Origin: Alphaproteobacteria bacterium
GTDB lineage: Bacteria; Pseudomonadota; Alphaproteobacteria; Rickettsiales; UBA8987
Assembly: GCA_031426355.1 (NCBI GenBank)
Contig: JANPLD010000068.1
Location: forward strand, 71,477-135,476
DNA length: 64,000 nucleotides
Reading direction: 5' to 3'
In this document: piece after piece, positions 12,684 to 59,659 of the stretch
Layout of the letters: the number at the start of each line of letters is the position of its first letter
Position numbering within the stretch: position 1 is the first letter of the stretch
Notes under the pieces: generated by a model
Seen by the model: only the letters and a program-made list of their open reading frames with translations
The model's database searches: none
Told to the model about the DNA's origin: nothing
Made by a program: the position numbers and the translations under genes

Positions 12684-13166
12684 TTATAATTTTCTGTACA
12701 TAATAAAAGCATCCACCAATCCAAGTTTTGAATGACGGAAACCATTGGGAATAGTGCCTATTATTTCAAAACCTAGAGACTTCCATAAATTTACCGCAGG
12801 AGTATTTGTTGAAACAACAAAGTTGAATTGCATGGCGATATAGCATTCTTTCTTCGCCTGCTCTATCGAATGCATGCCTAGCGCTTTACCAATACCTTTC
12901 CCGTGAAAATCAAGTGATACCATGTAGCTTGCGTTTCCTATGTGATCGCCCAAACCTTTCCGGTTTTTGCGGAGGGCGTACATTCCTGCAACTTTGCCAT
13001 CAATTTCAGCTACGAAGCATTTTGTGTGTTTACCGGTGAAATAATCTATCGCTTCTTCTTTTGAGGTATTGGGAAGAAAAGTATAAGTATCACCACCCTG
13101 AACTACAGCATGAAATATATTCCAGACAGATTCGGAATCGGAAGGTTTATAAGGGCGGATTAACAT
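12684..13166 (-). CDS. GNAT-family N-acetyltransferase
   Basis: 160 aa. The acetyl-CoA binding segment is VSLDFHGKGIGKALGMHSIEQAKK, followed by NTPAVNLWKSLGFEIIG. The start overlaps the stop of the upstream VirD4-like gene (TAATG). Confidence 0.85.
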   Translation of the reverse strand: MLIRPYKPSDSESVWNIFHAVVQGGDTYTFLPNTSKEEAIDYFTGKHTKCFVAEIDGKVAGMYALRKNRKGLGDHIGNASYMVSLDFHGKGIGKALGMHSIEQAKKECYIAMQFNFVVSTNTPAVNLWKSLGFEIIGTIPNGFRHSKLGLVDAFIMYRKL

Positions 13167-14497
13167 TAATCTTTATCTTCATTGTTATCATTAACAATAT
13201 TCCTTTTATTTGCAGTACTATCATGCACTAAAGAAAGATAAGATATATTATTGCGTTTATTTTTATCATTATTTTCCTTTGGCATTTTCATTTCTTTTTT
13301 TGAAATTTCTTGTACTGGTAACCAACTTTCTCCTTTTAATCTGTCTTTAAACATTTCTTTAGGATTTATTTTTTTAAGAAATTTAGGTTTTTGTCCCTCT
13401 TTAAAGAAAAGTAAGTTATTTGACAAAAGTTTAGATAAATATTTATCTCTCATTTTTTCTAATAAAAAGAAAGCTTCTAAAGTTTTTTTATCATTAATTA
13501 AGTATGCTATTTTATTTCCTGAGTTCGCGAAAAAACTGTAAGAGAAATTTTTTAAACAATTTTCAACTTGACTAAAATCATCAAAAACAGAACATAATTT
13601 TATATTATTGTTATAAAGAAGTGGCAAATCTGAAAGAACTTCAGCAGCATAACCTAAAGTATTAAAATTATTAATCATAAGTAATATGGGAATATTACCA
13701 TTACTATTTATCTTTTTTTTGATTAGCTGTTTATAAAAGATAGCTATAAGGGGATTAACTTTTTCTATATCAGTAGAATTAAGAGTTATATAGATAGTTA
13801 TTTTTTCTTTGGAAAGCTTAGATAAATCAAAATCACTATGATAGGTGAAGGTTTTAAGCTTAGGATTAGAAAATTTGTGAATTACATTATTTATTGTAGC
13901 TATAATTTTTGATTTTTCTTCATTAGATTTTTGAAGAAAATTTGCTATTTCTTTGTAAGCTATAGGATGTATTATGTTATTATGCCTATCTAATATAACC
14001 GCTAAATCATATGGAACATCGCTTGAGCTAATTATAGTATATATTTCGGAAAATGTACAAGGTCTTTCAATTAGAGAAACTAAGCAAATTAATAATCCTG
14101 TAAGTAAATTTTTTGCTTCAATATCGCAGGATTCATTTTTTGGAAAAAACCAATGAGAAATCTCTGTCATATCATCTACTATTTCACTAAAATCTCTATT
14201 TATCCAATCTAAAGGATTATAACAATACCCTCTAAGATCTGAAGCTAAAGGATTCCAAATATAAACTTTTTGACCAATTGACTCCCTATAACCGCTTGTT
14301 GCTTTAAAAATTTCTCCAGTTGGATCCTGTACAACTGCGGAATGGTTCCAATTCAATAGATTAGTTATAGCAAAACTTTCTGTCTTATTAGTTCCTATTG
14401 GCCCGCATAGGAGAAAATGATTATTATCATCTACTGAAATTATATTTTCATCATTTCTACCAATTATGATCTCTTTTGAGATTTTTGGTTTTTCCAT
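13166..14497 (-). CDS. VirD4/TraG-like (type IV coupling protein family) paralog, TM-less, with degenerate NTPase motifs
   Basis: HFLLCGPIGTNKTESFAITNLLNWNHSAVVQDPTGEIFKATSGYRESIGQKVYIWNPL...YNPLDWI aligns with the Walker-A region of VirD4/TraG (…APTRSGKGVG…P.LL…S.vv.D.KGE….T…R….G..V….P……NPL…). The Walker-B position reads LLMINNFNTLG instead of llDEF..lG. No N-terminal TM helices. Very AT-rich. Confidence 0.6.
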   Translation of the reverse strand: MEKPKISKEIIIGRNDENIISVDDNNHFLLCGPIGTNKTESFAITNLLNWNHSAVVQDPTGEIFKATSGYRESIGQKVYIWNPLASDLRGYCYNPLDWINRDFSEIVDDMTEISHWFFPKNESCDIEAKNLLTGLLICLVSLIERPCTFSEIYTIISSSDVPYDLAVILDRHNNIIHPIAYKEIANFLQKSNEEKSKIIATINNVIHKFSNPKLKTFTYHSDFDLSKLSKEKITIYITLNSTDIEKVNPLIAIFYKQLIKKKINSNGNIPILLMINNFNTLGYAAEVLSDLPLLYNNNIKLCSVFDDFSQVENCLKNFSYSFFANSGNKIAYLINDKKTLEAFFLLEKMRDKYLSKLLSNNLLFFKEGQKPKFLKKINPKEMFKDRLKGESWLPVQEISKKEMKMPKENNDKNKRNNISYLSLVHDSTANKRNIVNDNNEDKD

Positions 14498-14540
14498 TTG
14501 TACATAATTTATATTATTAAATTTAATATAATAACATAAA

Positions 14541-14563
14541 AGAGTTAATAAATTATTAACTCT
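14541..14563 (-). terminator. Intrinsic terminator of ppdK (11-bp-arm perfect palindrome followed by a T-run on the minus strand)
   Basis: AGAGTTAATAA-A-TTATTAACTCT overlaps the ppdK TAG stop by 2 nt. The minus strand continues TTTTATG. Confidence 0.55.
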
Positions 14564-17243
14564 AAGCTGCTTTTTTAAGGTGCTGCTTGGCTTTGATGGT
14601 TGCTTGCGCTGCTGCCAGGCGCGCTATAGGAACGCGGAATGGTGAGCATGAAACATAATTGAGTCCAACGTTATGACAGAACTCAATAGATGGCGGGTTG
14701 CCGCCATGTTCACCGCAGATACCAAGCTTGATATCCTTGCGCGTTTTCCTGCCCCTTTCAACTGCAAGCTCAATTAACTGGCCAACGCCTTCTACATCTA
14801 AAACCGCGAAGGGGTCTTTCTCGAATAATCCCCTTTCAACATATTGCGGGATGAATGAACCGGAATCATCACGGGAAATTCCGAGAGTTGTTTGAGTTAA
14901 ATCATTTGTTCCGAAGCTGAAGAATTCTGCATGTTCTGCGATCTTATCAGCAACTAAAGCGGCTCTAGGAAGCTCTATCATAGTGCCAACGAGGTATTCG
15001 ATCTTAGATTTTTTCTCAGCGAAAACTTTCTGCGCAACTTCATCGATCAGGTTTTTCAGTATCTCTAATTCCCTTGCGTTTAGAACAAGCGGTATCATTA
15101 TTTCAGGTAATACTTTTTTACCTTTTTTAGCAGTTTCAATTGCTGCTTCGAAAATAGCGCGGGCCTGCATCTCGTAAAGCTCAGGGTAAGTTATACCAAG
15201 CCTGCAACCACGGTGGCCTAACATCGGGTTAGATTCATGAAGTTCTTTTGCGCGCGTTTTGATTTTCTCAACTGCAATTCCTGAAGCTTTTGAAACTTCG
15301 GCGAATTCAGAATCAGTATGTGGAAGGAATTCATGAAGAGGTGGATCTAGCAAGCGGATCGTTACTGGCAGACCTTCCATGATTTCAAATATATCTTCAA
15401 AATCTTTACGCTGGTATGGGAGAAGTTTAGTAATGGCTTTCCTTCTTTCATTTTCGTCATTAGCAACGATCATTTCGCGAATAGCGATGATACGGTCAGC
15501 ATCAAAGAACATATGCTCTGTTCTGCAAAGGCCAATGCCTTCTGCGCCGAATTTACGGGCTGTTAGACAATCTTGTGGAGTTTCAGCATTTGTGCGTACT
15601 TTGAGGGTTCTGGTCTCATCAGCCCATTTCATCATGGTTTCGAACTCTGCTGACAATTCAGGATCAATCGTTGGCACCCTGCCTAAAATAACTTCGCCTG
15701 TGCTGCCATCGATCGTGATTATATCACCTTCATTGATGGTTTTATTACCGACAGTGAATTTTTTTGCCTTGTAATCAATAGTTACCTGACCTGCTCCAGT
15801 AACGCATGGCCTGCCCATACCGCGGGCAACAACTGCCGCGTGGGATGTCATACCGCCGCGTGAAGTTAATATGCCTCTGGCAGCATTCATTCCGTGGATA
15901 TCTTCAGGGCTGGTTTCAGCGCGAACTAAAATTACCGCTTCTTCTTTTTTAGCATGTTCTTCAGCATCATTAGCGTTGAACACAACTTTACCGCATGCCG
16001 CTCCCGGGGAAGCAGGAAGACCTTTTGCGATAACATCTTTTTTCGCTTTAGGATCAAGCGTCGGGTGAAGTAATTTATCAAGTTCATCAGGGGATACGCG
16101 GAGGATAGCTTCATCTTTAGAGATCAAACCTTCAGCAACCATATCAACTGCAATTTTGATAGAGGCTTTTGATGTACGTTTGCCATTACGCGTCTGAAGC
16201 ATCCAGAGTTTTCCGTCTTCAACGGTAAATTCGATATCCTGCATGTCGCGGTAATGTTTCTCAAGTTTTTTGTATATGTCAACAAGCTGCGCGTAAACTT
16301 CAGGAAGGGATTCTTCCATCGCAGGGAGTTTGCTTTTCTGGGAATTTTTACCGGCGATAGTGATCTGCTGGGGAGTACGGATACCTGCAACAACATCTTC
16401 ACCTTGGGCGTTAATTAAATATTCACCGTAAAATGCTTTTTCGCCCGTTGACGGGTTACGAGTGAATGCAACGCCTGTCGCGCTGTTCTCACCAGTATTA
16501 CCGAACACCATGGATTGCACGTTAACTGCAGTTCCCCAGCTTTCTGGGATGTCATACATTCTGCGGTAAGTTATCGCGCGGTGGTTCATCCAGCTTGAGA
16601 ATACTGCGCCAACTGCGCCCCATAACTGTTCTTTAACATCCTGCGGGAATGGTTTTCCTGTTTCTTCCTGAACCTTCTTTTTAAATCTCAGAACGAGGTC
16701 TTTCAGATCATCAGCGTTAAGTTCAGTATCAAGGAATATGCCTTTATCCTGTTTTTTAAGATCAAGAATATCTTCAAATAAGTGCCTTTCAACTTCAAGG
16801 ACGACATCAGAATACATCTGGATGAAGCGGCGGTATGAATCATATGCGAAACGAGGGTTGCCACTTTTGATCGCTAAACCTTCAACGGTTTCATCATTAA
16901 GACCAAGGTTTAATATCGTATCCATCATCCCCGGCATTGAAGCGCGGGCGCCTGAACGGACAGAAACAAGAAGCGGATTGGTTTTATCACCAAATTTCTT
17001 ACCGATAGTTTTTTCAATTGCAGCTATACCTTCAACAACCTGCTTTTCAAGGGCGTCAGGGTATTTGCGGTCATTTTTATAAAATTCCGTACATACTTCA
17101 CTTGTGATAGTGAAACCGGGAGGAACAGGCAGGCCAACCCTGCACATTTCAGCAAGGTTTGCACCTTTACCGCCGAGCAGGTTTTTCATTGAACCTTCGC
17201 CCTCAGCATTACCGTTACCGAACGTATATACCCATTTAGTCAT
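14562..17243 (-). CDS. ppdK: Pyruvate, phosphate dikinase
   Basis: 893 aa. Contains an N-terminal GGKGANLAEM ATP-grasp segment, the phosphohistidine segment RGGMTSHAAVVARGMG, and the C-terminal PEP-utilising motifs GTNDLTQ and GICGEHGG. Confidence 0.97.
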   Translation of the reverse strand: MTKWVYTFGNGNAEGEGSMKNLLGGKGANLAEMCRVGLPVPPGFTITSEVCTEFYKNDRKYPDALEKQVVEGIAAIEKTIGKKFGDKTNPLLVSVRSGARASMPGMMDTILNLGLNDETVEGLAIKSGNPRFAYDSYRRFIQMYSDVVLEVERHLFEDILDLKKQDKGIFLDTELNADDLKDLVLRFKKKVQEETGKPFPQDVKEQLWGAVGAVFSSWMNHRAITYRRMYDIPESWGTAVNVQSMVFGNTGENSATGVAFTRNPSTGEKAFYGEYLINAQGEDVVAGIRTPQQITIAGKNSQKSKLPAMEESLPEVYAQLVDIYKKLEKHYRDMQDIEFTVEDGKLWMLQTRNGKRTSKASIKIAVDMVAEGLISKDEAILRVSPDELDKLLHPTLDPKAKKDVIAKGLPASPGAACGKVVFNANDAEEHAKKEEAVILVRAETSPEDIHGMNAARGILTSRGGMTSHAAVVARGMGRPCVTGAGQVTIDYKAKKFTVGNKTINEGDIITIDGSTGEVILGRVPTIDPELSAEFETMMKWADETRTLKVRTNAETPQDCLTARKFGAEGIGLCRTEHMFFDADRIIAIREMIVANDENERRKAITKLLPYQRKDFEDIFEIMEGLPVTIRLLDPPLHEFLPHTDSEFAEVSKASGIAVEKIKTRAKELHESNPMLGHRGCRLGITYPELYEMQARAIFEAAIETAKKGKKVLPEIMIPLVLNARELEILKNLIDEVAQKVFAEKKSKIEYLVGTMIELPRAALVADKIAEHAEFFSFGTNDLTQTTLGISRDDSGSFIPQYVERGLFEKDPFAVLDVEGVGQLIELAVERGRKTRKDIKLGICGEHGGNPPSIEFCHNVGLNYVSCSPFRVPIARLAAAQATIKAKQHLKKAA

Positions 17244-17373: not shown

Positions 17374-17592
17374 ATGACTTTATCAGTAAAATTAGGCGAT
17401 GATATTGAGAATAGATTAAGTGAACTCGCCGATATAACGGGCCGTACTAAAACCTATTATATAAAAAAAGCGGTGCTAGAAATGCTTGAGGACATGGAAG
17501 ATATTTATATTACAGAAAAAAGAATTGAAAATAAAAGTGAAAAAATCTGGTCAATGAAAGAAATAGAGGCTGAACTTGACCTGGCGCATTGA
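17374..17592 (+). CDS. relB: Ribbon-helix-helix (RelB/CopG-type) antitoxin
   Basis: 72 aa. An N-terminal beta-strand plus helices (LSVKLGDDIENRLSELADITGRTKTYYIKKAVLEMLE). Overlaps the downstream RelE-like ORF by 17 nt. Confidence 0.75.
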   Translation: MTLSVKLGDDIENRLSELADITGRTKTYYIKKAVLEMLEDMEDIYITEKRIENKSEKIWSMKEIEAELDLAH

Positions 17593-17845
17593 ATGGAAAG
17601 AGAGTGCAAGAAAAGAGCTTAGAAAACTGAATAAACAAGCTCAGTCACAGATAATTTCCTATTTAAAAGAATCTATAGAAAAATCTGATAATCCTAAAAA
17701 TTTTGGCAAGCCACTTGTAGGAAATTTAAAAGGATTGTGGAGATATAGAATTGGTGATTATCGGGCAGTGTGCCAAATACAGGATGAAAAAATTACTGTT
17801 TTAGTTGTAAGAATCGCCCATAGAAAAGAGGTTTATGATAACTAG
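17576..17845 (+). CDS. relE: RelE/ParE-family type II toxin
   Basis: 89 aa with a TTG start. Contains WRIEWKESARKELRKL...GLWRYRIGDYRAVCQIQDEKITVLVVRIAHRKEVY, which matches the RelE pattern (…YRLVYQV.D..v.v.vi.vg.R..vY). Confidence 0.8.
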   Translation: MTWRIEWKESARKELRKLNKQAQSQIISYLKESIEKSDNPKNFGKPLVGNLKGLWRYRIGDYRAVCQIQDEKITVLVVRIAHRKEVYDN

Positions 17846-20833: not shown

Positions 20834-21604
20834 ATGTTAGCTATGAATAACAATATTAACATTTCTGATAATTTTGACCCAACTGGAATTGACTTGGACA
20901 GGTTAGGAAGAATTCATTACCAAGCCTATCAGTTGGTTACAAAGTATTTAGATAAAAATGGACTTCCCAGAATTGATAAGAGGGAAATCCTTTTGGAAGA
21001 TTATAAACATGGAGGCGAGTCACATGGTGGGAAAATTTCCCTATCAATTAATTTTAAAGAAGCAAATGACGAAAAGTTTCTATTTAGACTTGTACACGAG
21101 TATGTTCATGAACTTAACAGCAAACCATATACAAATGCCTTCACATATGAAAACATTATACATAATGTAAATAGGTTTTTACACAAAGCTAGTATAGCTA
21201 CAGGCTTTTCAAGTTTTTTATCTGGAATTGCTGCAACGGCTTCAGGATTTGATAATGTTCCTATGTGCATAGTATTTGCTGCATCTACTATCTTGACTGC
21301 TGCTTCTCACATTTTTGAAAAAAAGCGTTTACCACAAATATGTGGAAAAATGGAACTCAGAACTGATGCACTTGCAGTAGAAATAATTGATAACCCAGAA
21401 ACTTTAATCAAAGCTCATTTACCTATACCAGAAAAACTAAATCAATATTTATTTTCAGATAGTAAGCCTGATTTTGAGAATATAAATATTTATTATAATG
21501 AAATCCTTAAACAACAACCAAACTTACGAAAGATAGATCCCGAATATGCTTTTTCTCCAGCAACCCGAATAAAGAATATTATAAATGTAGCTTCAAGCAA
21601 TTGA
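20834..21604 (+). CDS. Putative M48 (HtpX-like) zinc metalloprotease, minimal form
   Basis: An HExxH motif (LVHEYVHEL) is followed by two hydrophobic helices (IATGFSSFLSGIAATASGF / MCIVFAASTILTAASHIF). Then come MELRTDALAVE (an E..AD..A-like third-ligand region) and a C-terminal SPATRIKNI (compare HPp..eRi..L). Confidence 0.4.
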   Translation: MLAMNNNINISDNFDPTGIDLDRLGRIHYQAYQLVTKYLDKNGLPRIDKREILLEDYKHGGESHGGKISLSINFKEANDEKFLFRLVHEYVHELNSKPYTNAFTYENIIHNVNRFLHKASIATGFSSFLSGIAATASGFDNVPMCIVFAASTILTAASHIFEKKRLPQICGKMELRTDALAVEIIDNPETLIKAHLPIPEKLNQYLFSDSKPDFENINIYYNEILKQQPNLRKIDPEYAFSPATRIKNIINVASSN

Positions 21605-38439: not shown

Positions 38440-40821
38440 TCATAATAAAACCTCTGTAATTGCCACCTCCCCCCGCCCGACTTTATCAGACATCTGGTAT
38501 ATTCTGGCGGTAAAGTTAGTTGCTAGAGAACCAAAGTCAGAACTCTGCATACCTTCAGTATAATTAAAACTTGGAGAGGTTATTTTCTCAGTCCTTTTTA
38601 AAGTAGAAGCATCGAAAATGTCTATTTCATATTCTTCCTTAGTTTCAAAAACAGGGATCTCTACACTTGAAGAAAAAGAGATATTACCGCGTGATCTTCT
38701 CAGCCATTGTATATTGATGTCATCATCCATTTCCCTTTCGGCAGAAATATGGACAGGTGAATATGGCTTTAATGAATTTCCAGAAAAGTTAATTTCTTTT
38801 GCGGTAACATCATCTGCACTTTTACCAAAGGTTACAGCTTTTATCCAGATAGTTTGGCCGATCTGTGAAACAGGCATCTCTATCTTTAAAACATTCTCAT
38901 CAAGCAGGATGAACCTGCTGCCTGCAGGATGAGTTTCACCTGCGTAATTTTCTGTACCCTGACGGCCGCGATATAAGTGGCTAAGCGTATATTTATTTAA
39001 TTCTGTCTGGTTGATATTTTTAAACTGAAAATTTTCATTTCCTATCAAAGCTAAATTTCCAAATGATTGTAGATTATCTTCTGTTAGTGATTCTAAAGTT
39101 CCACCGATCAAATTTATATTCAGCTGATTAATTTTATCAATAACAGGGGAGCTGAATTGTAACAGTTCAGTTTCAATAACTCCCATTGTTGCAGGGGAAA
39201 CAATATCAGTTATTTTCTGAAAACCTTCTGTTGCGGAAATATTGCTTACATATATTGCGCAACCATTCCAGTTAGAAGAAGTACCGCAGACAGCCAGATG
39301 CAGATATGCTTTATCTATTGAAGTTTCATTTGGCAAATGATGTGTATCAATTATCTCAAAATAAGTATCGGAGATAGGTTCCAGATTTTCACTGTTATAA
39401 TCAGTCGTAAGTTCCTCATTGGCGGAAGAATAAAAATCATTTTCAAATCTTATTGCAGATATTTTTATCTTGCCTTGCTGCGTGAGTGAGGAAATTATTT
39501 TCAGCTTATAGGTCTCATCATTTTTAATGATGTTCACTATATCGCCTGCTTCAATATATAAATATTCAGATGGCAGTGAGAATTCTATCTTCTGAGTTAT
39601 TGCTTCCTCTTCAAGAAGTAAAGTTTGTGCTATTTTTTCAGCATATGATCTGTTCAATAATAATGGCAGATTAATCTCAATACCGGATGAATTATTTTTA
39701 TCTTCGCGCGAGATGTCAAAATTTCCGACAAGGTAATTATTATTTTCCGATATATAATTAAGGCTGAGGTTTGAAGTAATATTCAGGCTAGATGCATTTT
39801 CAAACAGCATGGTCTCATTATTCTTTTCGAAAATTAATCTGCTAAAATCTATATTTATTTCTTCAGTGTTTTCACTCTGCCTTGGGAAGAATTTCACTTT
39901 ATCACTTTCAACAAAATCAAAAAAGTAACCTGATTGTAATGTTCGCAGGGCTTCTAAAGCTGTGATAGCACCCGAGAGATTATATCCGCTGACAAGTTTA
40001 TTAACATTATTTATTTCTGGAGTTTCAATACCGGCTTTTTTGCAGAGGTCAGAAATTATATTCTTAAGTTCAGCTACCCCTAATTTTCCATTTATCCAAT
40101 GGCCGCGGCTCCATAAATTTCCATCACCCCAGACATTTTTCATATCAGGGTAAAATGGATAGGACCTCGCATCATAAGCCCAAATAAATTTCTGCTCCAC
40201 CATTTCAGAATTCTGCCATTTTGCCAAGGTTCCCTGAAGCGCCGTTCTTTGCGCCAGAAAATCAATATATCCTTTGGATAAATATGGCAGGTTGCCATCA
40301 ACTGAATCAGGATTATAAAAAACATTTGGCTGATTGGCGCAGCCATCAACTGAAGGAAAACCAAACTCAGTGAACCATATTTTTTTACTTTGTGGTACAA
40401 ACTCTGTTTGTTCTGAATCAGGATTTGTATGAGTATTATTCCACCAATATTCAATATTTTTCCAAGCATCTTGAGGTGTTAAATCTGCTTTTACAGTGCG
40501 TTCTTCATCAGTGTAATACCAGTCATAACCTTCACCATTTTCCCAGCCGTCTATAATTTCTTGCTTATCGTATATTCCATTCTGCTCCCTGTCAGTGAGT
40601 GGGAAATATGCATCGATACCGATGAAATCTATATTGTCTGATGCCCATAGAGGATCCATATTATACCAGCCATTTGTGGAATGGTATTCACTCCAATCCG
40701 CTGCGTAACCTATTTTGGTTTCAGACCCCATTATTGTTTTAACTTCCTCTACAAGGGCTATCAGTTCGTCCACTGCCGAGAAACTATCATCAGCATCCTG
40801 AATTTGTGTCAGGCCTTTCAT
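38440..40821 (-). CDS. GTA host-specificity/tail-fibre protein (RcGTA g15-like), C-terminal fragment; the frame is actually open up to the frameshift at 40910..40915
   Basis: The 793-aa ORF begins inside the conserved …VDAFIIGSEMKGLTQI…TKIGYAADWSEY… TIM-barrel-like region of g15-type proteins. Upstream in the same frame, FFTKTNGYNNFILHYADLVKDKVDAFIIGSE is also readable. Confidence 0.8.
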   Translation of the reverse strand: MKGLTQIQDADDSFSAVDELIALVEEVKTIMGSETKIGYAADWSEYHSTNGWYNMDPLWASDNIDFIGIDAYFPLTDREQNGIYDKQEIIDGWENGEGYDWYYTDEERTVKADLTPQDAWKNIEYWWNNTHTNPDSEQTEFVPQSKKIWFTEFGFPSVDGCANQPNVFYNPDSVDGNLPYLSKGYIDFLAQRTALQGTLAKWQNSEMVEQKFIWAYDARSYPFYPDMKNVWGDGNLWSRGHWINGKLGVAELKNIISDLCKKAGIETPEINNVNKLVSGYNLSGAITALEALRTLQSGYFFDFVESDKVKFFPRQSENTEEINIDFSRLIFEKNNETMLFENASSLNITSNLSLNYISENNNYLVGNFDISREDKNNSSGIEINLPLLLNRSYAEKIAQTLLLEEEAITQKIEFSLPSEYLYIEAGDIVNIIKNDETYKLKIISSLTQQGKIKISAIRFENDFYSSANEELTTDYNSENLEPISDTYFEIIDTHHLPNETSIDKAYLHLAVCGTSSNWNGCAIYVSNISATEGFQKITDIVSPATMGVIETELLQFSSPVIDKINQLNINLIGGTLESLTEDNLQSFGNLALIGNENFQFKNINQTELNKYTLSHLYRGRQGTENYAGETHPAGSRFILLDENVLKIEMPVSQIGQTIWIKAVTFGKSADDVTAKEINFSGNSLKPYSPVHISAEREMDDDINIQWLRRSRGNISFSSSVEIPVFETKEEYEIDIFDASTLKRTEKITSPSFNYTEGMQSSDFGSLATNFTARIYQMSDKVGRGEVAITEVLL

Positions 40822-40856
40822 TTCTGAGCCGATGATAAATGCATCTACCTTATCTT

Positions 40857-42146
40857 TTACCAGATCAGCATAATGAAGAATAAAATTATTATACCCGTTG
40901 GTTTTAGTGAAAAAATATGAACTTCAGATGAATCGCAGGTTATATATCCGCGCCATGGCTTATCTATAATATCCATAAAAATCATCGGATAGAATTTTAC
41001 TTTTAGTCCTCTGTTTGTTGCTTCTTCTATAAATCTTAAAATACTTTCATCACTTGGTGTGCCGCCATAAATAGGGCGTTCATCTGCGTAAGTTACCAGC
41101 GCTGCAGTGTCGCGGTTATATCCAGCAACATGCCATTCAGTGGGAAAAGTTTTCGTCTGGGTTTTATATTCTACGCGTGGCGCAACAGTGCAAACATTTG
41201 CATCAAGTGAATTGCCAAACCAGCAGCAAACCAGACTTACATATTCAATATTTGGGAAATTATTTTGTAAATTATCCAAGGCAACTAATGCATCTGCTTT
41301 ACCGCTGGCATTATTCTGATTGATAAATTTTTCTTCACCGGTCTGGTGCCAGATACCTAAAATTTCCACCCCATCTTTTTTACTATGGGTTAAAGTATCA
41401 TAAACAAATTCGCCGCTTCCCGGTATAATATTCACTGCGGTAACATTATTTTCTAGATTGTTTTCATCTCCTGATATTTTTAAATTGCGGATTATCTCAA
41501 AAGTGAAATTCGGTATTCTGCCCCTAAATTCAGTTAGTTCAAAATCTTCAAAAACTATATAGGCAAGGCCACGATATGCAGGGGTTTTATTTTCACCTTC
41601 ATAAGATTCTATTACAGGGTCTGGAAGTTGGGTTTCATCCCCTTTATAGATACTGTAAGAAGCGCAGTAATCATTGGGATTGATCAGATTTGAATCTGCC
41701 CAGACACGGTCGACATAGTCAATTTCACCTTCGCATAATGCAATGGCGATATTTACGAAATAACGGAAATTAGTTTCGGTTTTCCTTTCTACTTTCGCGC
41801 TGCTGCCTTTACCGCCCTGATTGACAGGTGCTCTTTCTTCGACGATCCTGACATTGGTTGACCAGACGATATTACCGGCTATCCTTGTTTTGCCGTAAAT
41901 TATAGGGATCGCGTCACCATAAGAAGATTTCTGTATTGAGAAATCAGTTAGTTTTTTTCCTCGGATTATATTCTTTTCATTCTCACCGAAAAGGTTTGAA
42001 TCAATTGAATTGCCGAGCCTTGTGGCTCCGGCATTAAGCCCTTCTTTAACCTGACCCTCAACAATATTACCGAATACCGGGATCTGCGAAAGACCAAATG
42101 ATTCTACAAAACTATTTGATGCACTTGTTAATACTGTTGTTGTCAT
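40857..42146 (-). CDS. GTA host-specificity/tail-fibre protein (RcGTA g15-like), N-terminal fragment
   Basis: …YGKTRIAGNIVW…FRYFVNIAIALCEGEIDYVDRVWADSNLI…YKGDETQLPDPVIESYEG…PAYRGLAYIVFEDFELTEFRGRIPNFTFEI… matches the conserved N-terminus of alphaproteobacterial GTA g15 proteins. The last 30 or so residues are out-of-frame nonsense. Confidence 0.8.
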   Translation of the reverse strand: MTTTVLTSASNSFVESFGLSQIPVFGNIVEGQVKEGLNAGATRLGNSIDSNLFGENEKNIIRGKKLTDFSIQKSSYGDAIPIIYGKTRIAGNIVWSTNVRIVEERAPVNQGGKGSSAKVERKTETNFRYFVNIAIALCEGEIDYVDRVWADSNLINPNDYCASYSIYKGDETQLPDPVIESYEGENKTPAYRGLAYIVFEDFELTEFRGRIPNFTFEIIRNLKISGDENNLENNVTAVNIIPGSGEFVYDTLTHSKKDGVEILGIWHQTGEEKFINQNNASGKADALVALDNLQNNFPNIEYVSLVCCWFGNSLDANVCTVAPRVEYKTQTKTFPTEWHVAGYNRDTAALVTYADERPIYGGTPSDESILRFIEEATNRGLKVKFYPMIFMDIIDKPWRGYITCDSSEVHIFSLKPTGIIILFFIMLIW

Positions 42147-42158
42147 AACTTCATTAAT

Positions 42159-42584
42159 TTAGTTTTTGATTCTATAAATTTTTACTATCTTTGATCTCCA
42201 CACATCATTAAGGCGATGTTTCACCGCTTTGCCAATCTGGCTGTAACAGTGAATGAGTGCTAGGTTTTCATTATTATATTTCGTGATGAAGCCAGTATGC
42301 TGAGGGAATTTTCCGAACTTCATCAGAAATATATCACCTTCTTGCATCTTATTTTTTTCAATTGAAAGAAGCGAAGCTTCCATTTTTTCCTGCAGTAAAA
42401 ATGTTGAGGGGATACGGGAATATCCTGCTTCATCATTTTGCGTGAGGTCAACTTCGCAATTTTTCAGGACAGTTAGTACAAACCCTATGCAATCAACACC
42501 TATAGCAATATTCCTGCCTTGATGGACAAAGGGAACTCCGATCAGTTTTTCAGCTTCTGAGATTATTTTATTTTGTAAATCCAT
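42159..42584 (-). CDS. NlpC/P60-family cell-wall peptidase (RcGTA g14-like)
   Basis: 141 aa. …GVPFVHQGRNIAIGVDCIGFVL… provides the catalytic Cys context, followed by …HTGFI…LIHCY. Position between the g13- and g15-like genes. Confidence 0.8.
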   Translation of the reverse strand: MDLQNKIISEAEKLIGVPFVHQGRNIAIGVDCIGFVLTVLKNCEVDLTQNDEAGYSRIPSTFLLQEKMEASLLSIEKNKMQEGDIFLMKFGKFPQHTGFITKYNNENLALIHCYSQIGKAVKHRLNDVWRSKIVKIYRIKN

Positions 42585-42586
42585 AT

Positions 42587-43414
42587 CTATACTTTTAATA
42601 TCCTGTCTGTTCCCGGGATATGAGGTTCCCCACGAAAATTAATTATGTTGTCGAATTTGGAGATACAGGTTTGTGAATTTTTATCGCAGCCTACAGAGAC
42701 CTGATATTCATCACCTGTTTCAATATCTTTTATAAGAGAAGTAAGAAGTTTGAATTTGCCTTCTGTGAAATTTGCGATCTCTCTTATAGAACCAGAGTTC
42801 GCGCCGCTTAAGAATGTAATCACCCCTTTTGAGAAATAATTTTTCTCTTCAGTTCGCGCGGTATCAATGAATTCCATTTTATTTATTGTGAATGTAACTG
42901 CTCCTGAGAATGTATGGTCAGCAATATTTATTCCGCATTTGCTATCGCCAAATTTTGCTCTGCAATTAGGTGAGAAATTCTGTGATATTCTGTTTTTAAG
43001 TAATGAAGAATATCCTGATATCTCAATAAATAATTTATCGTCATCATATCTTATTTTTGAAATAAAACCTTTTTTGAGAATTAATTTCCCATCTTCAGGA
43101 GATTCATAATTCAGTAAAAATATTTCTATATCGGCAGAATCTAATTTACTTGATTCAACTTCAGTTTTTGAGATGATATCATCTTCAATAACACTTAAGA
43201 TACTTTCTTTTTTATTAACTGAAAACCCTGAATAATCAGCAAAGATATCAGATGACAGATAAGGTTTATAAATATTGCCGTCATATTGGAATTCCTTATC
43301 GAAACTGGTTAAGGCGATCACTGATCCATCCTTACAGGTAATAAGAATGAATTTTGCTAAGGTTGTTACTTCTTTTGCAAGATGCCCTTTTAAATTTTCG
43401 GAAATGTTTTTCAT
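42587..43414 (-). CDS. DUF2163 / BR0599-type phage protein (RcGTA g13-like hub protein)
   Basis: 275 aa. Contains …TLAKFILITCKDGSVIALTSFDKEFQYDGNIYKP… and the C-terminal CDKNSQTCISKFDNIINFRGEPHIPG motif typical of this family. Confidence 0.78.
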   Translation of the reverse strand: MKNISENLKGHLAKEVTTLAKFILITCKDGSVIALTSFDKEFQYDGNIYKPYLSSDIFADYSGFSVNKKESILSVIEDDIISKTEVESSKLDSADIEIFLLNYESPEDGKLILKKGFISKIRYDDDKLFIEISGYSSLLKNRISQNFSPNCRAKFGDSKCGINIADHTFSGAVTFTINKMEFIDTARTEEKNYFSKGVITFLSGANSGSIREIANFTEGKFKLLTSLIKDIETGDEYQVSVGCDKNSQTCISKFDNIINFRGEPHIPGTDRILKV

Positions 43415-44013
43415 ATTTTTACCTCTATCAATTCAATTTTTGACATTGAAGCTTTGGAGAAATTTTCTGTTGAGTATGAAAGGATATCTGAGTTGAAACG
43501 CGCCGGAACATCGAATTCGAAATCTGCTTTTACCACCACAGAATTTGCAGGAGGACTTGAAAAAGTAATAACTCCATTATTATTCCCGAGGGAAAATCCC
43601 GAAGCCTGCTTAATATTATCAAGATAGACCTATATGCTCTGCGGCACCGGTTTCGTAATTTTTCTCTCAATCTCATAAATCTCATCTCCGTATTTTTTAA
43701 TAAGCTGGAATTGTGTTTTTAAATTATTGCCTGTTCCGAGTATTTGGCCTTTCGCCTGAAAATCTGCCCAGTCTTTGAAGCGGAAGCCATAGGCCATACC
43801 CCGGCGTGCGATAAAGAAATCGCGGATCTTTTCTGCCTGAGCGGTAGAAATATTTTTGAAATCGATCTCATATTTCGCGCGAGGGATTGAATTATTTATA
43901 TTCCGCTTCTCGTGGCCGCTCGTCATTAAATTAACGGAAGTTGAGAATTCCTGACCACCTTGCGCTTTAAAAGAAATATCTGCGGGGAACCTTGCTTCGT
44001 GAAAATCTGTCAT
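43411..44013 (-). pseudogene. DUF2460 protein (RcGTA g12-like) interrupted by an in-frame TAG at 43630..43632
   Basis: The track ORF 43630..44013 (FHEARFPADISF…GGQEF…SGHEKRN…RRGMAYGFRFKDWADF…KPVPQSI*) stops at TAG. The same frame continues for 72 codons (VYLDN…GVITFSSPPANSVVVKADFEFDVPARFNSDIL…) to a TGA that overlaps the g13-like ATG. Together this is about 200 aa, the normal length of the family. Confidence 0.8.
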
Positions 44014-44109
44014 TGGGAATCTCCTATAAAATTATTCTGCGATAGAGATTATAAACTTCCTTTGATGCCGGATTTATATCGGCCTTGCCCCTATTCTCAA
44101 AACGATAGG

Positions 44110-44577
44110 CTATCTGGTAAAAAGCGCCGTTTTGATGATCTGTGGAACATTATCTGCTTCCTCACCATATCCGGCAAAGTAATCTATGTAGATAAACTTT
44201 GCAGAAGGAAGAACATCAAAAAAGAGGAAATATTTTGCCGGAGAAAGATAATAATTCGAAGCAGAAAATGCTGTTTCATCACCATTTTTATCTATCAATT
44301 TTACCGAGTCGATAGAACTTACCGGACCCATCGGCAAATCAACTTCCATTTCAGTTGAACTGCAATATGCAAGGCGCCATTTCTGTGTGATGAGAGAAGC
44401 CTTCATATATTTTTCAGCTTCGATACGAGCTGATTTTATAAGATCCTCAATAGTACTATTTTCTGCATCGCCGCTGATGCGTAAGAATTCCTTTACTTCA
44501 TCTGCTGTTACCGGTTCAATTTCCGGTTCAGTTAATTTTATCAATTCCGGTTTCCTGCTTTTAAAAATTCCGAACAT
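44110..44577 (-). CDS. gp6-type head-tail connector/adaptor (RcGTA g6-like), C-terminus displaced by a frameshift
   Basis: …PVTADEVKEFLRISGDAENSTIEDLIKSARIEAEKYMKASLITQKW… is the gp6-like N-terminal signature. The expected C-terminal …YRFENRGKADINPASKEVYNLYRRIIL* is readable in the -1 frame down to TAG 44024..44026. Confidence 0.75.
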   Translation of the reverse strand: MFGIFKSRKPELIKLTEPEIEPVTADEVKEFLRISGDAENSTIEDLIKSARIEAEKYMKASLITQKWRLAYCSSTEMEVDLPMGPVSSIDSVKLIDKNGDETAFSASNYYLSPAKYFLFFDVLPSAKFIYIDYFAGYGEEADNVPQIIKTALFTR

Positions 44578-44657
44578 GATGCTCCTTTATTTGTATGTTT
44601 AAAATCCTTCTATTTTTAAGATTATGTGCGAAAAAATATGTGCGGAAGGGTGAAAAT

Positions 44658-44694
44658 TCATGTGCCACACCATGAATAAGCATGGCACATGAAG
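44658..44694 (-). terminator. Hairpin/terminator immediately downstream of the capsid gene
   Basis: TTCATGTGCC (44658..44667) pairs with GGCACATGAA (44685..44694), with an inner CCATG/CATGG extension. On the minus strand it is followed by TTTTCACCC. Confidence 0.55.
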
Positions 44695-44701
44695 TAAAAA
44701 A

Positions 44702-45904
44702 CTAACTAGCTGCCAGTTTTAATAATTTGATCGCTTCAAAATTAACCACACCACCACCTACACGTTTAGTCGTGTAGAATTTCACGAATGGTTTTTCAGT
44801 GTATGGATCGCGGAGGATGCGGATACCTGTCCTATCAACGATCTGATATGCACGTTTAAAATCTGCAACGGCAACTGAAAGTGAGTTGGTTGCGGGAACC
44901 GGCATATCGGAAGCCTTAACCACTGGAACGCCGAGTAATGTATCAGGCGTTCCTGCTGTTAGGCCGGGCTGCCAGAGATATTGATTCGTAGTTGCTTCTT
45001 TCAGTAAACGAACTGCCTGAACTGTTGCTCTGTTCATCATGAAGGCGTTATTTGCATATTCATCTTTTAAAGCATAATAGAGTTTGATGAGTGAATCGGA
45101 AGTTACCGCGCCTGCTGAAAGTGAGCTGATCTGTTCAATCTGCCCGGCACCGGTTCCTGCGGTATAGGCAAGTATACCTTTTGGTTTGCCCGAACCATTA
45201 CCTGAAACAAAGGCAGTGTTTTCTTTGCGTGAGAAAACTTCCACCAGTTTTTCAGTAAGCCAGCTTTCAATATCAATTGACGAATCATCAATTAATTTTT
45301 GCGTTGCCTTAGGCTGTGCCACAAGCTCATATGCAGTGATAGAAAGCTTGCCGATCTGCGGTGTATCGGAATCAGAAACGGCAGCGGATTCTGAAGATGC
45401 CCAGTCTGCTCCAGCTTCGTCGCTATCTTCTATTATTTCGAAAACGTCAGATGAAAGTTGCGTAACATTTGCAACCTGCCTCATTGGTGAGCTTTCATAG
45501 ATGATGCGTGCAAGCTGCGCGCTCATTTGCGGTGTAACCAGATATCCGCCGTCTGCATCAGTGCCAACTGAAAGGGCTTTCTTCTCGAGGAAAGAAAGAT
45601 CACCTTCAACGCCTTTACGAACGTAATTGATGAAAGCTGCTTTATGTTCGCCTGCAATATTTGATGAAACATCGCTTTTATATTCACCACCAAGTGAGGG
45701 GCGGTTCAGAACTGTCTCAACACCGTCAAGACGGTTCTTGAATTCGTCTATTACATTATTTAATTTGTTAATATGATTTGTTGTTAAAGAATCCGCAGAG
45801 CCTTTTTTCTCTATCTCCTGCAGCCTCCTTTCATTAAGTTTTTTGAAATCATCCCATGCGGAGCCGAGTTCATCAACTTTTCTTGTTATTGTAGAAATAC
45901 TCAT
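44702..45904 (-). CDS. HK97-family major capsid protein (RcGTA g5-like)
   Basis: 400 aa. An N-terminal coiled delta-like region (…VDELGSAWDDFKKLNERRLQEIEKKG…) is followed by the HK97-fold body (…GGYLVTPQMS…, …NQYLWQPGLTAGTPDTLLGVPV…). Confidence 0.9.
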   Translation of the reverse strand: MSISTITRKVDELGSAWDDFKKLNERRLQEIEKKGSADSLTTNHINKLNNVIDEFKNRLDGVETVLNRPSLGGEYKSDVSSNIAGEHKAAFINYVRKGVEGDLSFLEKKALSVGTDADGGYLVTPQMSAQLARIIYESSPMRQVANVTQLSSDVFEIIEDSDEAGADWASSESAAVSDSDTPQIGKLSITAYELVAQPKATQKLIDDSSIDIESWLTEKLVEVFSRKENTAFVSGNGSGKPKGILAYTAGTGAGQIEQISSLSAGAVTSDSLIKLYYALKDEYANNAFMMNRATVQAVRLLKEATTNQYLWQPGLTAGTPDTLLGVPVVKASDMPVPATNSLSVAVADFKRAYQIVDRTGIRILRDPYTEKPFVKFYTTKRVGGGVVNFEAIKLLKLAAS

Positions 45905-45912
45905 AATTTTCC

Positions 45913-46422
45913 TTATTTTAAAATGTTAATTGTCTTGTCCAGTAAGGAGAGAAGCTCTGCTTCAGGCTCATCTGATTTTACACTGAGGATCTTTGCGGAA
46001 TCATTGGCCGGGAAAGTGACCAGACTTATTTCGAATAATTCTGCTTTTTTGATTACGCGAACTTCGGTTTCATCATCAATTTCAAAATCAGTGACCCTGA
46101 AACCAATGCTTAAGCCTTTCAGCGCACCGCTTTTGAGGAGTGCGTAAGCTTCGCGAGCGCGTTCGATCTCAAGTAGAAGCTGGCCTTCAACGTACAGTCC
46201 GTTGTCATCTTCTTCTATGTGAGTAAAAATCCCGATCGGTTCATCTGCGCGGTGTTGCCAGAGTAATTTTATTTCCCCGGCATTTTTGGTCAGATCTGAA
46301 AAAGCACCTTCCAGAATTATATCATCGTGATTATCTATAACGCCGAATACGCTGGCGTAACCTGAGAAAAAACCCTTTTTATTAAGAGATTTTATCTCAA
46401 GGGAATAATTATAATTTTGCAT
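45913..46422 (-). CDS. HK97-family prohead protease (RcGTA g4-like)
   Basis: 169 aa. GYASVFGVIDNHDDIILEGAF…LWQHR…PIG…LSIGF…EISLVTFPAN matches the S78/U35 prohead protease pattern. Confidence 0.88.
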   Translation of the reverse strand: MQNYNYSLEIKSLNKKGFFSGYASVFGVIDNHDDIILEGAFSDLTKNAGEIKLLWQHRADEPIGIFTHIEEDDNGLYVEGQLLLEIERAREAYALLKSGALKGLSIGFRVTDFEIDDETEVRVIKKAELFEISLVTFPANDSAKILSVKSDEPEAELLSLLDKTINILK

Positions 46423-47710: not shown

Positions 47711-50359
47711 ATGCCGCCAAAAACACTTTCATCAATCCGCACTGCATTTCTGGATTTTTTCAAATCCAAGGGGCATTTTATTGCGCCTTCATCGCCGCTT
47801 ATCCCGCATAGTGACCCGACTTTGATGTTCACTAATGCAGGTATGGTGCAGTTTAAGAATGTATTTGCCGGGCGTGAGGAAATTAAAGATAAGCAAGGCA
47901 AAGTTACACATAGAGTTGCAACATCACAAAAATGTGTTCGTGCCGGTGGAAAACATAATGACCTTGAGAATGTAGGTTATACTACGCGTCACCATACATT
48001 TTTTGAAATGCTAGGTAATTTTAGTTTTGGAGATTATTTTAAAGAAGATGCGATCTCTTATGCATGGGAATTCCTGACAAAAACATTGGCACTTCCTAAA
48101 GATAAATTATGTGTAACTGTTTATCATACGGATGATGAGGCTTTTAATCTTTGGAAGAAAATCGCTAACTTACCTGATGAAAAAATAATACGCATAGCTT
48201 CTGATGATAATTTCTGGGCAATGGCTGATACCGGTCCGTGCGGGCCGTGCAGTGAGATATTCTTTGATCACGGCCCACAAGTTGCAGGCGGCCCGCCAGG
48301 TTCACCTGAACAGGATGGTGACAGGTTCGTTGAGATATGGAACCTTGTATTTATGCAATACGAGAAGTTAGAGAACGGTGAGCGTACAAACCTCCCAAAA
48401 CCATGTATTGATACTGGTATGGGCTTGGAGAGATTGACTACGGTTCTGCAAGGTGTTCACGACAATTATCAAACGGATATTTTTGTAAGATTAATTGAAG
48501 CAAGTAAAAATATTTCAGGGCAGAATAAGCCTGAATTTGATAATTCCCACAGGATAATCTCTGACCATTTACGTTCCACATGCTTCCTGATCGCCGATGG
48601 AGTACTGCCTTCAAATGAAGGTCGAGGATATGTTCTCCGCCGTATAATGCGACGCGCCATGAGGCACTGCCATCGCTTAAGCCCTAATAAAATTATGATG
48701 CACCGTTTAGTTCCAGCATTACTTGCTGAAATGAGCGAAGCGTATCCTGAGCTTGAACGCGCAAGAGCCTTAATTATACAAACGATTGAAAATGAGGAAG
48801 AAAGATTCAGGGAAACTTTGGGCAATGGTTTAAAGGTCCTTGAAAATGAATCGAAGCATTTAAAGAATAAAACCCTTTCAGGCGAAATTGCTTTCAAACT
48901 TTATGATACTTATGGGTTTCCAATAGATCTTACGCAGGATATCCTCAAAGAAAGAGGGATAAAAGTTGATGAAGCTGGTTTTAACGCAGCATTAGGAAAA
49001 CAGAAAGAAAAAGCCCGGGCTAATTGGACAGGAAGTGGTGAAGCTGCGACTGAAACATTATGGCTAGAACTTGCAAAGGAACTGGAGGAAACAGAATTCT
49101 TAGGATATACTAATACAAACTCATCAGGTGATGTAATTGCCATTATTGCGAGTGGTGCAAAACAGAATAAATTATCAGAAGGTGAAGGCGCGATAATCAC
49201 CAACCAGACACCTTTCTATGCGGAATCTGGTGGTCAGGCTGGCGATAGGGGTTTCATCAAAAACGATAAAGGTGTTTTTGAAGTTCATGATACTAAAAAA
49301 TTCAGCGGTTCATTATTTGTACATTTCGGAAAAATGATTTCCGGTGAAATCAAAATGCATGACATTGCCAAACTTGAAGTTAATGAGAATCGCAGGGCAA
49401 GGGTACGCAAGAACCATTCTGCTACCCATATACTTCATGCGGTGTTGAGGAAAAACCTTGGCGACCATGTAACACAAAAAGGCTCACTGGTTGAGGAAGA
49501 TTATCTACGTTTTGATTTTTCAAACCCTAAAGCTGTTACTGATGAAGAGATCAGAAAGATAGAATTTGAAGTTAACAAAATAATTTCTCAAAATACTTTG
49601 GTGAATACCAAGATCATGAATATTGACCAGGCCTTAGAATCAGGAGCTATGGCATTATTCGGCGAGAAATATTCTGATGAGGTTCGCGTACTTTCTATGG
49701 GTGATAGTTACTCAGTAGAGCTTTGCGGCGGAATACATGTTGAACGCACCGGAGATATCGGAACCTTCCGTATCACTAAGGAGTCCGGCGTTGCATCAGG
49801 TGTCAGAAGGATAGAAGCTGTAACCGACCAGAAAGCATTGGAATTTGTTTTCAGCAAGGAAGATAAATTAAACAATATAATGGAGATAACCAAATCTTCA
49901 GAAAATGATGTTGTTGAGAAATTGGAAAAGCTTCTTCTTGAGAGAAAAGAGCTGGAAAAGCAGGTTTCTGAACTTAAGAAGAAAGCTGCTCTTGGCGGAA
50001 ATTCAGGCTCTAGTAATAATAATGAAGAAGTGGAAGTAATAAATGGAACGAAGTTCCTTGCTAAAAAACTTGATGGCGTTGATGCGAAAGACCTGCGCGG
50101 TATTGTTGACGAAATAAAAACCAAACACACTTCATGTGTAGTATTTTTGGTTGCGGAGAATAAAGGCAAGGTTTCAGTTCTGGCGGGTGTTACCAATGAC
50201 CTTACAAATAAAATATCTGCCGTTGATATAGTTAAGAAATCCGTTGAGATAATGGGCGGCAAAGGCGGTGGCGGGCGCCCGGATTTTGCCCAAGGCGGCG
50301 CTCCTGATAGCAATAATTACGAGAAAGCTATTGTAGAGATTAAAAAACTAATTATATAA
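47711..50359 (+). CDS. alaS: Alanine--tRNA ligase
   Basis: 882 aa. Contains FTNAGMVQFKNVF, RHHTFFEMLGNFSFGDYFK, the editing-domain HSATHILH, and CGGIHV. Confidence 0.97.
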   Translation: MPPKTLSSIRTAFLDFFKSKGHFIAPSSPLIPHSDPTLMFTNAGMVQFKNVFAGREEIKDKQGKVTHRVATSQKCVRAGGKHNDLENVGYTTRHHTFFEMLGNFSFGDYFKEDAISYAWEFLTKTLALPKDKLCVTVYHTDDEAFNLWKKIANLPDEKIIRIASDDNFWAMADTGPCGPCSEIFFDHGPQVAGGPPGSPEQDGDRFVEIWNLVFMQYEKLENGERTNLPKPCIDTGMGLERLTTVLQGVHDNYQTDIFVRLIEASKNISGQNKPEFDNSHRIISDHLRSTCFLIADGVLPSNEGRGYVLRRIMRRAMRHCHRLSPNKIMMHRLVPALLAEMSEAYPELERARALIIQTIENEEERFRETLGNGLKVLENESKHLKNKTLSGEIAFKLYDTYGFPIDLTQDILKERGIKVDEAGFNAALGKQKEKARANWTGSGEAATETLWLELAKELEETEFLGYTNTNSSGDVIAIIASGAKQNKLSEGEGAIITNQTPFYAESGGQAGDRGFIKNDKGVFEVHDTKKFSGSLFVHFGKMISGEIKMHDIAKLEVNENRRARVRKNHSATHILHAVLRKNLGDHVTQKGSLVEEDYLRFDFSNPKAVTDEEIRKIEFEVNKIISQNTLVNTKIMNIDQALESGAMALFGEKYSDEVRVLSMGDSYSVELCGGIHVERTGDIGTFRITKESGVASGVRRIEAVTDQKALEFVFSKEDKLNNIMEITKSSENDVVEKLEKLLLERKELEKQVSELKKKAALGGNSGSSNNNEEVEVINGTKFLAKKLDGVDAKDLRGIVDEIKTKHTSCVVFLVAENKGKVSVLAGVTNDLTNKISAVDIVKKSVEIMGGKGGGGRPDFAQGGAPDSNNYEKAIVEIKKLII

Positions 50360-59573: not shown

Positions 59574-59659
59574 TTTTTGATTTCCAGAAAATATAGACAA
59601 AAATCTGTTATTGTTATAGTTAATAGTATTAAAGTTTATTGTTGAAGAATTGAATAGTA

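Follow-up and report, generated by a model that had tools for sequence, protein, structure and literature searches.

The 64-kb window analysed here (64,000 nucleotides of contig JANPLD010000068.1, alphaproteobacterial assembly GCA_031426355.1) carries on its minus strand an open reading frame (ORF) of 443 codons (13166..14497) for a VirD4/TraG-family protein that lacks a transmembrane domain (TMD). Upstream on the coding strand lies ppdK, the gene for pyruvate phosphate dikinase (14562..17243, minus strand), after a gap of 64 bp; downstream follows the gene for a GNAT N-acetyltransferase of 160 amino acids (aa; 12684..13166, minus strand), beyond which recF, galU and gyrB are located. We interpret the VirD4-like ORF as a lineage-specific, horizontally acquired insertion between ppdK and the GNAT gene, and its product as a hydrolysis-dead short VirD4-type protein that is a non-catalytic passenger of this locus. 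We assign a probability of roughly 0.7 to this interpretation. An earlier note on the same DNA, based on the letters of the window alone, had described the ORF as a soluble and degenerate coupling-protein paralogue that might form a two-gene unit with the GNAT gene. The following data bear out the former part of this description and contradict the latter.

The assignment of the 443-aa protein to the VirD4/TrwB family is secure. Residues 24-339 match the Pfam family PF02534 (T4SS-DNA_transf) with E=7e-52 and 177 bits against a gathering cut-off of 20.1, a significant profile match to the TraG/VirD4/TrwB families that agrees with the proposed alignment to the nucleotide-binding core of type IV coupling proteins (T4CPs). 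The NCBIfam VirD4 model PRK13897 (NF010472) scored 235 bits, a third of its 728-bit equivalog cut-off, which was thus not reached, and the match spans only profile positions 141-478 of 657. The families PF10412 and PF12696 are no longer detected in the protein. Sequence search returned Helicobacter pylori Cagbeta/Cag5 (8dol, E=1e-11) as the only solved relative. From an alignment of nine sequences, AlphaFold produced a confident model (predicted local distance difference test score, pLDDT, 79.9; predicted template modelling score, pTM, 0.81) with a nucleotide-binding domain (NBD) and an all-alpha domain. With this model Foldseek retrieved Cagbeta (8dol, E=5e-19, TMq 0.74) and TrwB (E=4e-12), followed by DotL, HerA and VirB4, so that the fold check suggested in the earlier note returned the expected TrwB/VirD4 fold. 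The low-complexity C-terminal tail (residues 401-443; 13169..13297, minus strand) is predicted to be disordered (pLDDT <50). Beyond about residue 400 there is no aligned homology in relatives, and the tail runs exactly to the start of the GNAT gene.

The protein has no N-terminal membrane anchor, as had been noticed before. Its alignment begins approximately 140 residues into full-length VirD4 proteins, just before the strand that enters Walker A, and its peak 19-residue hydropathy is 1.66 compared to 2.5-2.8 for the N-termini of full-length VirD4s. As the ppdK stop codon lies just 64 bp upstream of the ORF, there is no space for a lost or frameshifted 5' part, and the ORF is not a fragment of a longer, frameshifted virD4.

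An exhaustive search with a profile hidden Markov model (HMM) over 1.84 billion cluster representatives found 8810 family members. The immediate clade comprises only the window protein (P0001) and P0002, its only close relative, with 39% identity. Family alignments show that all four motifs typical of these proteins are degenerate in the window protein. Walker A (residues 32-39; 14381..14404, minus strand) reads GPIGTNKT compared to xPTGSGKG in the family, with the lysine kept and the preceding glycine replaced by asparagine, which among residues other than glycine is best able to adopt the backbone conformation that the lost glycine had. In columns that are at least 75% conserved, the substitutions around this motif are A32G, T34I, G37N, G39T and V40E. 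Walker B (residues 272-278; 13664..13684, minus strand) reads LLMINNF and carries D276N and E277N, whereas hhhhD[ED]F is present in 16 of 16 other aligned members. Both Walker motifs are therefore as degenerate as the earlier note had claimed. The motif HDxKxEN is changed by H57Q, K60T and N63I, and YxRGY by Y293L, R295Y, G296N and Y297N. We quantified this degeneration by a leave-one-out count over all columns conserved to at least 75% in an alignment of 17 proteins of the family. Of 90 columns of this kind, 55 (61%) are retained in the window protein, the lowest value, followed by P0002 with 67%, while the others keep 75-96%; its 35 lost columns are concentrated in Walker A, HDxKxEN, Walker B and YxRGY. 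P0002 has also lost HDxKxEN and YxRGY, which indicates that this part of the degeneration is older than the split of the two proteins. Its Walker B contains DD, and Walker A and B were lost only in the lineage of the window protein.

VirD4-type T4CPs are described to depend on both their TMD and their ATPase, and T4CP mutants in Walker A retain localisation, nucleotide affinity and substrate binding (PMC7434980). Judged from its motifs, the window protein would not hydrolyse ATP, because the replacement of DE by NN is expected to remove Mg2+ coordination and the catalytic base. Binding of nucleotide and of partner proteins could persist, as the Lys-Thr pair of the P-loop is retained. The combination of this pair with asparagines in place of the acidic Walker B residues resembles classical hydrolysis-dead trap mutants.

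The GNAT gene is a resident and conserved gene. Its product matches PF00583 (Acetyltransf_1; E=2e-14, 54.2 bits compared to a gathering cut-off of 20.7) as well as PF13673 and PF13508, and more than 5000 homologues occur across phyla, the close ones being 65-88% identical and many being labelled 'L-amino acid N-acyltransferase YncA'. The nearest solved structure is an uncharacterised GNAT (PDB 4h89, E=2e-29). The window GNAT thus has these three Pfam families and the YncA labels in common with YncA/MnaT-like GNATs, but misses the NCBIfam equivalog cut-offs (best score 33.6 bits compared to 170), and no specific substrate can be assigned.

Next, we compared the genomic contexts of GNAT relatives with the window by tblastn, which yielded three related genomes (L083, L084/L085 and L088) in which an orthologous GNAT gene, 66-88% identical at the protein level, is found at the ppdK site. 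In L083, with a ppdK 94% identical to that of the window, a spacer of about 80 bp is followed by the GNAT gene (88% identical). In L088 (GCA_048498735.1; ppdK 81% identical) the gap is 4 bp and the gene order is glyQ-panD-glyS-ppdK-GNAT. L084/L085 (ppdK 90% identical) contain a different AT-rich insert on the opposite strand between the two genes. No VirD4-like sequence was detected by tblastn at the ppdK-GNAT loci of L083, L084, L085 and L088. As the nearest (L083) and the most distant (L088) of these relatives both show ppdK adjacent to the GNAT gene, this adjacency is ancestral, with the GNAT gene directly downstream of ppdK, and the VirD4-like ORF represents a derived insertion of about 1.4 kb. 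According to junction comparison, its upstream edge is the AT-rich 64-bp spacer (14498..14561, minus strand), which stands in place of the ppdK-GNAT spacers of about 80 bp (L083) or 4 bp (L088).

The earlier note had proposed a two-gene unit on the basis of the sequence TAATG at 13164..13168, in which the TAA stop codon of the VirD4-like ORF overlaps the ATG of the GNAT gene. This overlap is present as described, but the pairing is not conserved in either direction: the GNAT gene follows ppdK without a VirD4-like gene in the three relatives, and a GNAT neighbour is missing both from P0002 and, at loci with retrievable context, from the other short VirD4-like genes introduced below. The TAATG overlap is an edge and by-product of the insertion, not a conserved operon junction.

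The insert in L084/L085 (L084:1643-2493; L085:1132-1982) encodes proteins of 211 and 61 aa and has a GC content of 32% compared to 42% in its flanks, and the ppdK-GNAT junction looks like a repeated insertion site. The 211-aa protein holds the sequence GNGIGKVLL, reminiscent of GNAT motif A, and the pair might be a GNAT-type toxin-antitoxin system. Close by in the window (17374-17845, plus strand), two overlapping small ORFs of 72 and 89 aa between glyS and ppdK were identified by eye as RelB/RelE-like; in L088 glyS is directly followed by ppdK, so this pair is another lineage-specific insertion nearby. The locus of a further GNAT relative (65% identical to that of the window) encodes an ankyrin-repeat protein of 1060 aa (L086:1666-4848; GCA_964445765.1), which would fit a host-associated way of life of these Alphaproteobacteria.

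The base composition of the VirD4-like ORF sets it apart from its surroundings. Its GC content is 26.0% and its GC content at third codon positions (GC3) 0.16, the second lowest of 48 ORFs in the window, compared to a GC content of 38% for the whole window, 34.8% for its non-ORF DNA, a median ORF GC3 of 0.34 and GC3 values of 0.39 for ppdK and 0.35 for the GNAT gene. The ORF is therefore far more AT-rich than its neighbours, as stated in the earlier note. Loci that contain short VirD4-like relatives have a GC content of 29-32%. Together with a GC content below that of the non-coding DNA of the window, this argues for an AT-richer donor and against local drift or the duplication of a resident gene. 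The suggestion that the ORF might be a decaying duplicate of a resident virD4 is also not in line with its nearest relatives, which are other short orphans. Only one further contig carries the gene; this contig (L002) shows 100% identity to the window and is probably derived from the same sample.

Six further window ORFs without Pfam match show a similarly low GC3 of 0.155-0.21 (50352-50855, 58869-59795, both minus strand; 5838-6737, 6750-7499, 10179-10637, 20834-21604, all plus strand). They match the compositional signature of the VirD4-like gene and may be foreign or lineage-specific, possibly symbiont effectors. One of them, an unannotated ORF of 308 aa (58869-59795), overlaps the gene of a LysR-family regulator on the opposite strand (59660-60631, plus strand) by 136 bp. 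One start or stop call of this pair may be spurious, probably that of the orphan ORF.

The missing anchor is not peculiar to the window protein. Among the best 150 matches of the HMM search, about 14 are short (370-445 aa) and match from residues 4-12. We defined here a short class of VirD4-like proteins that start just before the strand into Walker A, show an internal C-terminal deletion and are 370-460 aa long. The window protein belongs to this class and has the common start point and the internal C-terminal deletion of 25-30 aa together with P0148, P0156, P0181, P0183, P0195, P0213, P0236, P0240, P0263, P0296, P0302 and P0304-P0308. GxGKG and D[ED]F are intact in every other short form, and HDxKxEN, YxRGY and the matches to PF10412 and PF12696 are retained in most of them, whereas the window protein is without all four class motifs.

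Wherever genomic context could be retrieved, the short forms are orphan genes that reside in AT-rich DNA among housekeeping genes. In two genomes the short form follows rpoA-rplQ-rplS, one of them with two TrbC/VirB2-like genes about 6 kb away, and another short form adjoins fdx, BON and glyA. Sequence is present upstream of the short forms, which indicates that their N-termini are genuine, and at the retrieved loci neither an anchor remnant upstream nor an adjoining membrane-protein gene was found. We also considered a split gene with the transmembrane anchor on a separate or degraded upstream ORF. This candidate was rejected, as tblastn with VirD4 N-termini found only the genes' own starts at all short-form loci. 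P0002 (L001:1499-2890) is flanked by ISAs1-like transposase fragments, one of which is the ORF directly upstream, so that no anchor gene is located there, and by a convergent gene for an 814-aa protein without family assignment. As a separate observation, the two TrbC/VirB2-like genes mentioned above (L089:16937-17983; GCA_964505265.1) lie on either side of rpmB, with an intact VirD4-like gene of the short type about 6 kb away; this layout suggests that genes of a type IV secretion system (T4SS) are scattered in the Rickettsiales style in a genome with a short form.

A neighbour-joining (NJ) tree placed the window protein with P0002 (bootstrap 99) and both with the short protein P0148 (bootstrap 94), the branch of the window protein being the longest of the three. 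All short forms grouped with full-length VirD4s of alphaproteobacterial or 'Rickettsiales' metagenome-assembled genomes with a bootstrap value of 74; the nearest of these full-length relatives are 31-35% identical. A single origin of the short forms received a bootstrap value of only 31. In the literature searched, we found no description of orphan VirD4 paralogues without TMD in Alphaproteobacteria.

Also in line with an orphan gene, a Pfam scan of all window ORFs of at least 150 aa turned up no family belonging to a T4SS or a relaxase, and the approximately 5.5 kb beyond its left end contain only nuoK-N and neither T4SS nor relaxase genes. The statement of the earlier note that no such gene lies near the ORF thus holds for the window and these 5.5 kb. 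The scan revealed housekeeping genes (nuo, gyrB, recF, galU, glyS, RNR, ileS, dnaB, recA, alaS and others), a flagellar rod gene and scattered head and tail genes resembling those of a gene transfer agent (GTA). The latter are dispersed over 38440-46422 and 51056-52258 and comprise a GTA TIM-barrel tail protein, a baseplate hub, a major capsid protein, a prohead protease and a portal protein; recA and alaS are located between the prohead protease and portal genes, which indicates that this GTA-like cluster is broken up. PADLOC returned no defence family for the VirD4-like protein or the GNAT at E<=0.01, which speaks against the defence-like module considered in the earlier note. P0002, unlike the window protein, showed a weak match to mad8 (E=7e-11, 40 bits) that we treated as generic ATPase similarity.

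Three known systems invite comparison. With VirD4-type T4CPs (VirD4 of Rickettsia and Agrobacterium, Cagbeta/Cag5 of H. pylori; PF02534, PF10412 and PF12696) the window protein has the core of NBD and all-alpha domain in common; it differs by the missing TMD, the four degenerate motifs, the missing internal C-terminal segment of about 25-35 aa and the lack of linkage to virB, tra or relaxase genes. T4CPs without TMD are a recognised subfamily, represented by TraJ of pIP501, which acts with the membrane protein TraI; T4CPs of this type are active ATPases whose genes lie in conjugation loci of Gram-positive bacteria, beside the gene of a small membrane protein that acts as partner (PMC7434980). 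The window protein is likewise without anchor, but it is set apart from this type, as described in the literature (PMC7434980), in that it has no conjugation locus, no adjoining membrane protein and dead ATPase motifs. The expanded rvh system of Rickettsiales, with its paralogues of VirB4, VirB6, VirB8 and VirB9, is similar in that divergent T4SS paralogues are scattered in reduced alphaproteobacterial genomes. In contrast, VirD4 of Rickettsia is single-copy and has its full length of 591 aa (PMC2653234), and the Pfam scan of the window revealed no rvh gene.

Together, these data lead us to the following explanation. A short, anchor-less VirD4-type gene was probably acquired, and recently so, from an AT-richer donor, its class recurring in AT-rich and probably host-associated alphaproteobacterial genomes. 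It landed in the short, insertion-prone spacer between ppdK and the GNAT gene, whereby the overlap with the latter arose as a by-product. The product keeps the predicted TrwB/VirD4 fold of NBD and all-alpha domain but lacks what is needed to energise transfer, namely the anchor, Walker A and B, HDxKxEN and YxRGY. At best, it may be a pseudo-ATPase limited to binding, with T4SS substrates or the hexamer of a resident VirD4 as possible partners; at worst, it may be a relic whose decay has just begun.

Several observations weigh against parts of this explanation. The horizontal origin is deduced from composition and from absence in relatives, while at the edges of the insert no donor, integrase, insertion sequence (IS) or att repeats were found and short matches occurred only at chance level. 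The lack of T4SS and virD4 genes refers to the window and the adjacent 5.5 kb; elsewhere in the genome such genes are neither shown nor excluded. Moreover, the frame is intact. The ORF contains no in-frame stop codon compared to 43 and 77 in two other frames, and 210 single-base changes would create one, so that a neutral copy would be open after 5% divergence with a probability below 3%. Constraint must thus have lasted until very recently or still last, and a relic, if it is one, can have lost constraint only very recently. P0002 has part of the motif loss in common and yet an intact frame at 39% identity, which suggests that the clade has been maintained with a function other than the canonical one. 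Its integrity despite 61% amino-acid divergence favours the pseudo-ATPase over the relic. Conversely, the occurrence in one genome only, the longest branch in the clade and the lack of a recognisable ribosome-binding site (RBS) or promoter weigh against a present function; a scan of the upstream spacer recognised neither for the VirD4-like ORF, which also counts against the explanation as a whole.

The regulatory signals of the locus are sparse. The 64-bp spacer contains neither a Shine-Dalgarno sequence nor a sigma-70-like promoter recognised by the scan. Promoter-like sites are not enriched (8 found compared to 11.9 expected), although two are located inside the VirD4-like ORF, and no promoter was recognised between this ORF and the GNAT gene. 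The 81-nt spacer segment folds at -15.6 kcal/mol (z=-3.2 compared to shuffled sequences). RNA folding placed there a ten-pair A/U-rich hairpin followed by UUUUAU, which overlaps the ppdK stop codon (14541..14563, minus strand). This hairpin fails the G+C rule of the terminator scan, which found no canonical terminator at the locus; hairpin and U-run are a possible, weak terminator candidate for ppdK.

The most serious alternative is a pseudo-ATPase with a regulatory or adaptor function in a resident T4SS, which selection would maintain and which would bind effectors or cap or mix into the hexamer of a canonical, membrane-anchored VirD4, comparable to the duplicated and diverged components known from the rvh system of Rickettsia. 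We regard this as possible, though clearly less probable than the passenger interpretation. It would account for an ORF that stays open in DNA of 26% GC, for the confidently kept fold of the predicted model, and for the intact P0002 with its partly common motif loss and the well-supported clade with P0148. It would also be in line with the wider short class that occupies one syntenic site in two genomes, one of them with scattered TrbC/VirB2 genes nearby, and with ATPase-dead T4CP mutants that still bind nucleotide and substrate (PMC7434980). However, the gene occurs in one genome only and is missing in the three closest relatives, and its product has degenerated furthest of all members and has the longest branch. 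Over a distance of about 70 kb there is no T4SS gene, no resident VirD4 was demonstrated, and the rvh expansions described contain VirD4 as a single copy (PMC2653234). The missing RBS and promoter also speak against this alternative.

A second and rather unlikely alternative holds that the frame was kept open for the sake of the GNAT gene, since stop codons in a 1.4-kb insert could cause polarity or uncoupling, and that the encoded protein is functionless. Its premise is that the GNAT was ancestrally expressed from the ppdK transcript, for which the tight spacing in one relative (4 bp in L088) could be taken as an indication. The non-homologous, disordered tail of 43 residues, which carries the frame precisely to the GNAT start, the lack of a recognised promoter between the two genes and the loss of all catalytic motifs would fit as well. 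Tight coupling to ppdK is nevertheless not required in this clade, as shown by the spacer of about 80 bp in L083 and the opposite-strand insert in L084/L085. In the window itself, the hairpin and U-run after ppdK and the two promoter-like sites inside the VirD4-like ORF are difficult to reconcile with such a dependence, and the retained fold-determining residues (61% of the conserved columns) exceed what this model needs.

Even less convincing is a remnant decaying in situ, left either by a canonical virD4 resident in the genome or by a conjugative element that had integrated and then lost its other genes by deletion. Orphan status, the lost N-terminus, degenerate motifs, the long branch and the position of P0002 beside ISAs1-like transposase fragments would be compatible with it; the short N-terminus and the C-terminal deletion, however, are common to at least 18 other short proteins and thus inherited traits of a subfamily. 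The ORF is not flanked by remnants of T4SS, relaxase, integrase or IS sequences, ppdK and the GNAT gene are in their ancestral order, and the 443-codon frame is intact and of foreign composition. Finally, a translationally coupled module, for example an effector or defence unit whose pseudo-ATPase would present the acetyltransferase with a substrate, is suggested by the same-strand TAATG overlap but is highly improbable in view of the GNAT genes that follow ppdK without a VirD4-like gene in L083, L088 and L084/L085, the VirD4-like relatives without GNAT neighbour, the different composition (GC3 0.16 compared to 0.35), the more than 5000 GNAT family members across phyla and the missing PADLOC match.

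According to our preferred interpretation as a passenger insertion, an apparent module of coupling protein and acetyltransferase is an insertion beside an old resident gene, which illustrates that start/stop overlaps can mislead when they are read without synteny data. Beyond this locus, anchor-less orphan genes of the VirD4 type recur in AT-rich alphaproteobacterial genomes, most of them with intact ATPase motifs. It may be speculated, very tentatively, that the window protein, P0002, P0148 and perhaps all short orphans are undescribed soluble VirD4 derivatives of host-associated Alphaproteobacteria that are no longer membrane motors. They might instead be binding modules of the cytoplasm that act as receptors for effectors, as adaptors similar to chaperones or as dominant-negative regulators of the resident coupling protein, and the branch of P0001 and P0002 might have become a hydrolysis-dead pseudo-ATPase that is passed on horizontally among symbionts living together. 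If functional, the short orphans would add a layer of soluble paralogues to the recruitment of T4SS substrates or its regulation in symbionts. In this case, the window copy would offer a naturally occurring hydrolysis-dead variant with which binding could be told apart from roles that need the ATPase. As a lead, the intact short orphans as a wider class are of more interest than the degenerate copy in the window.

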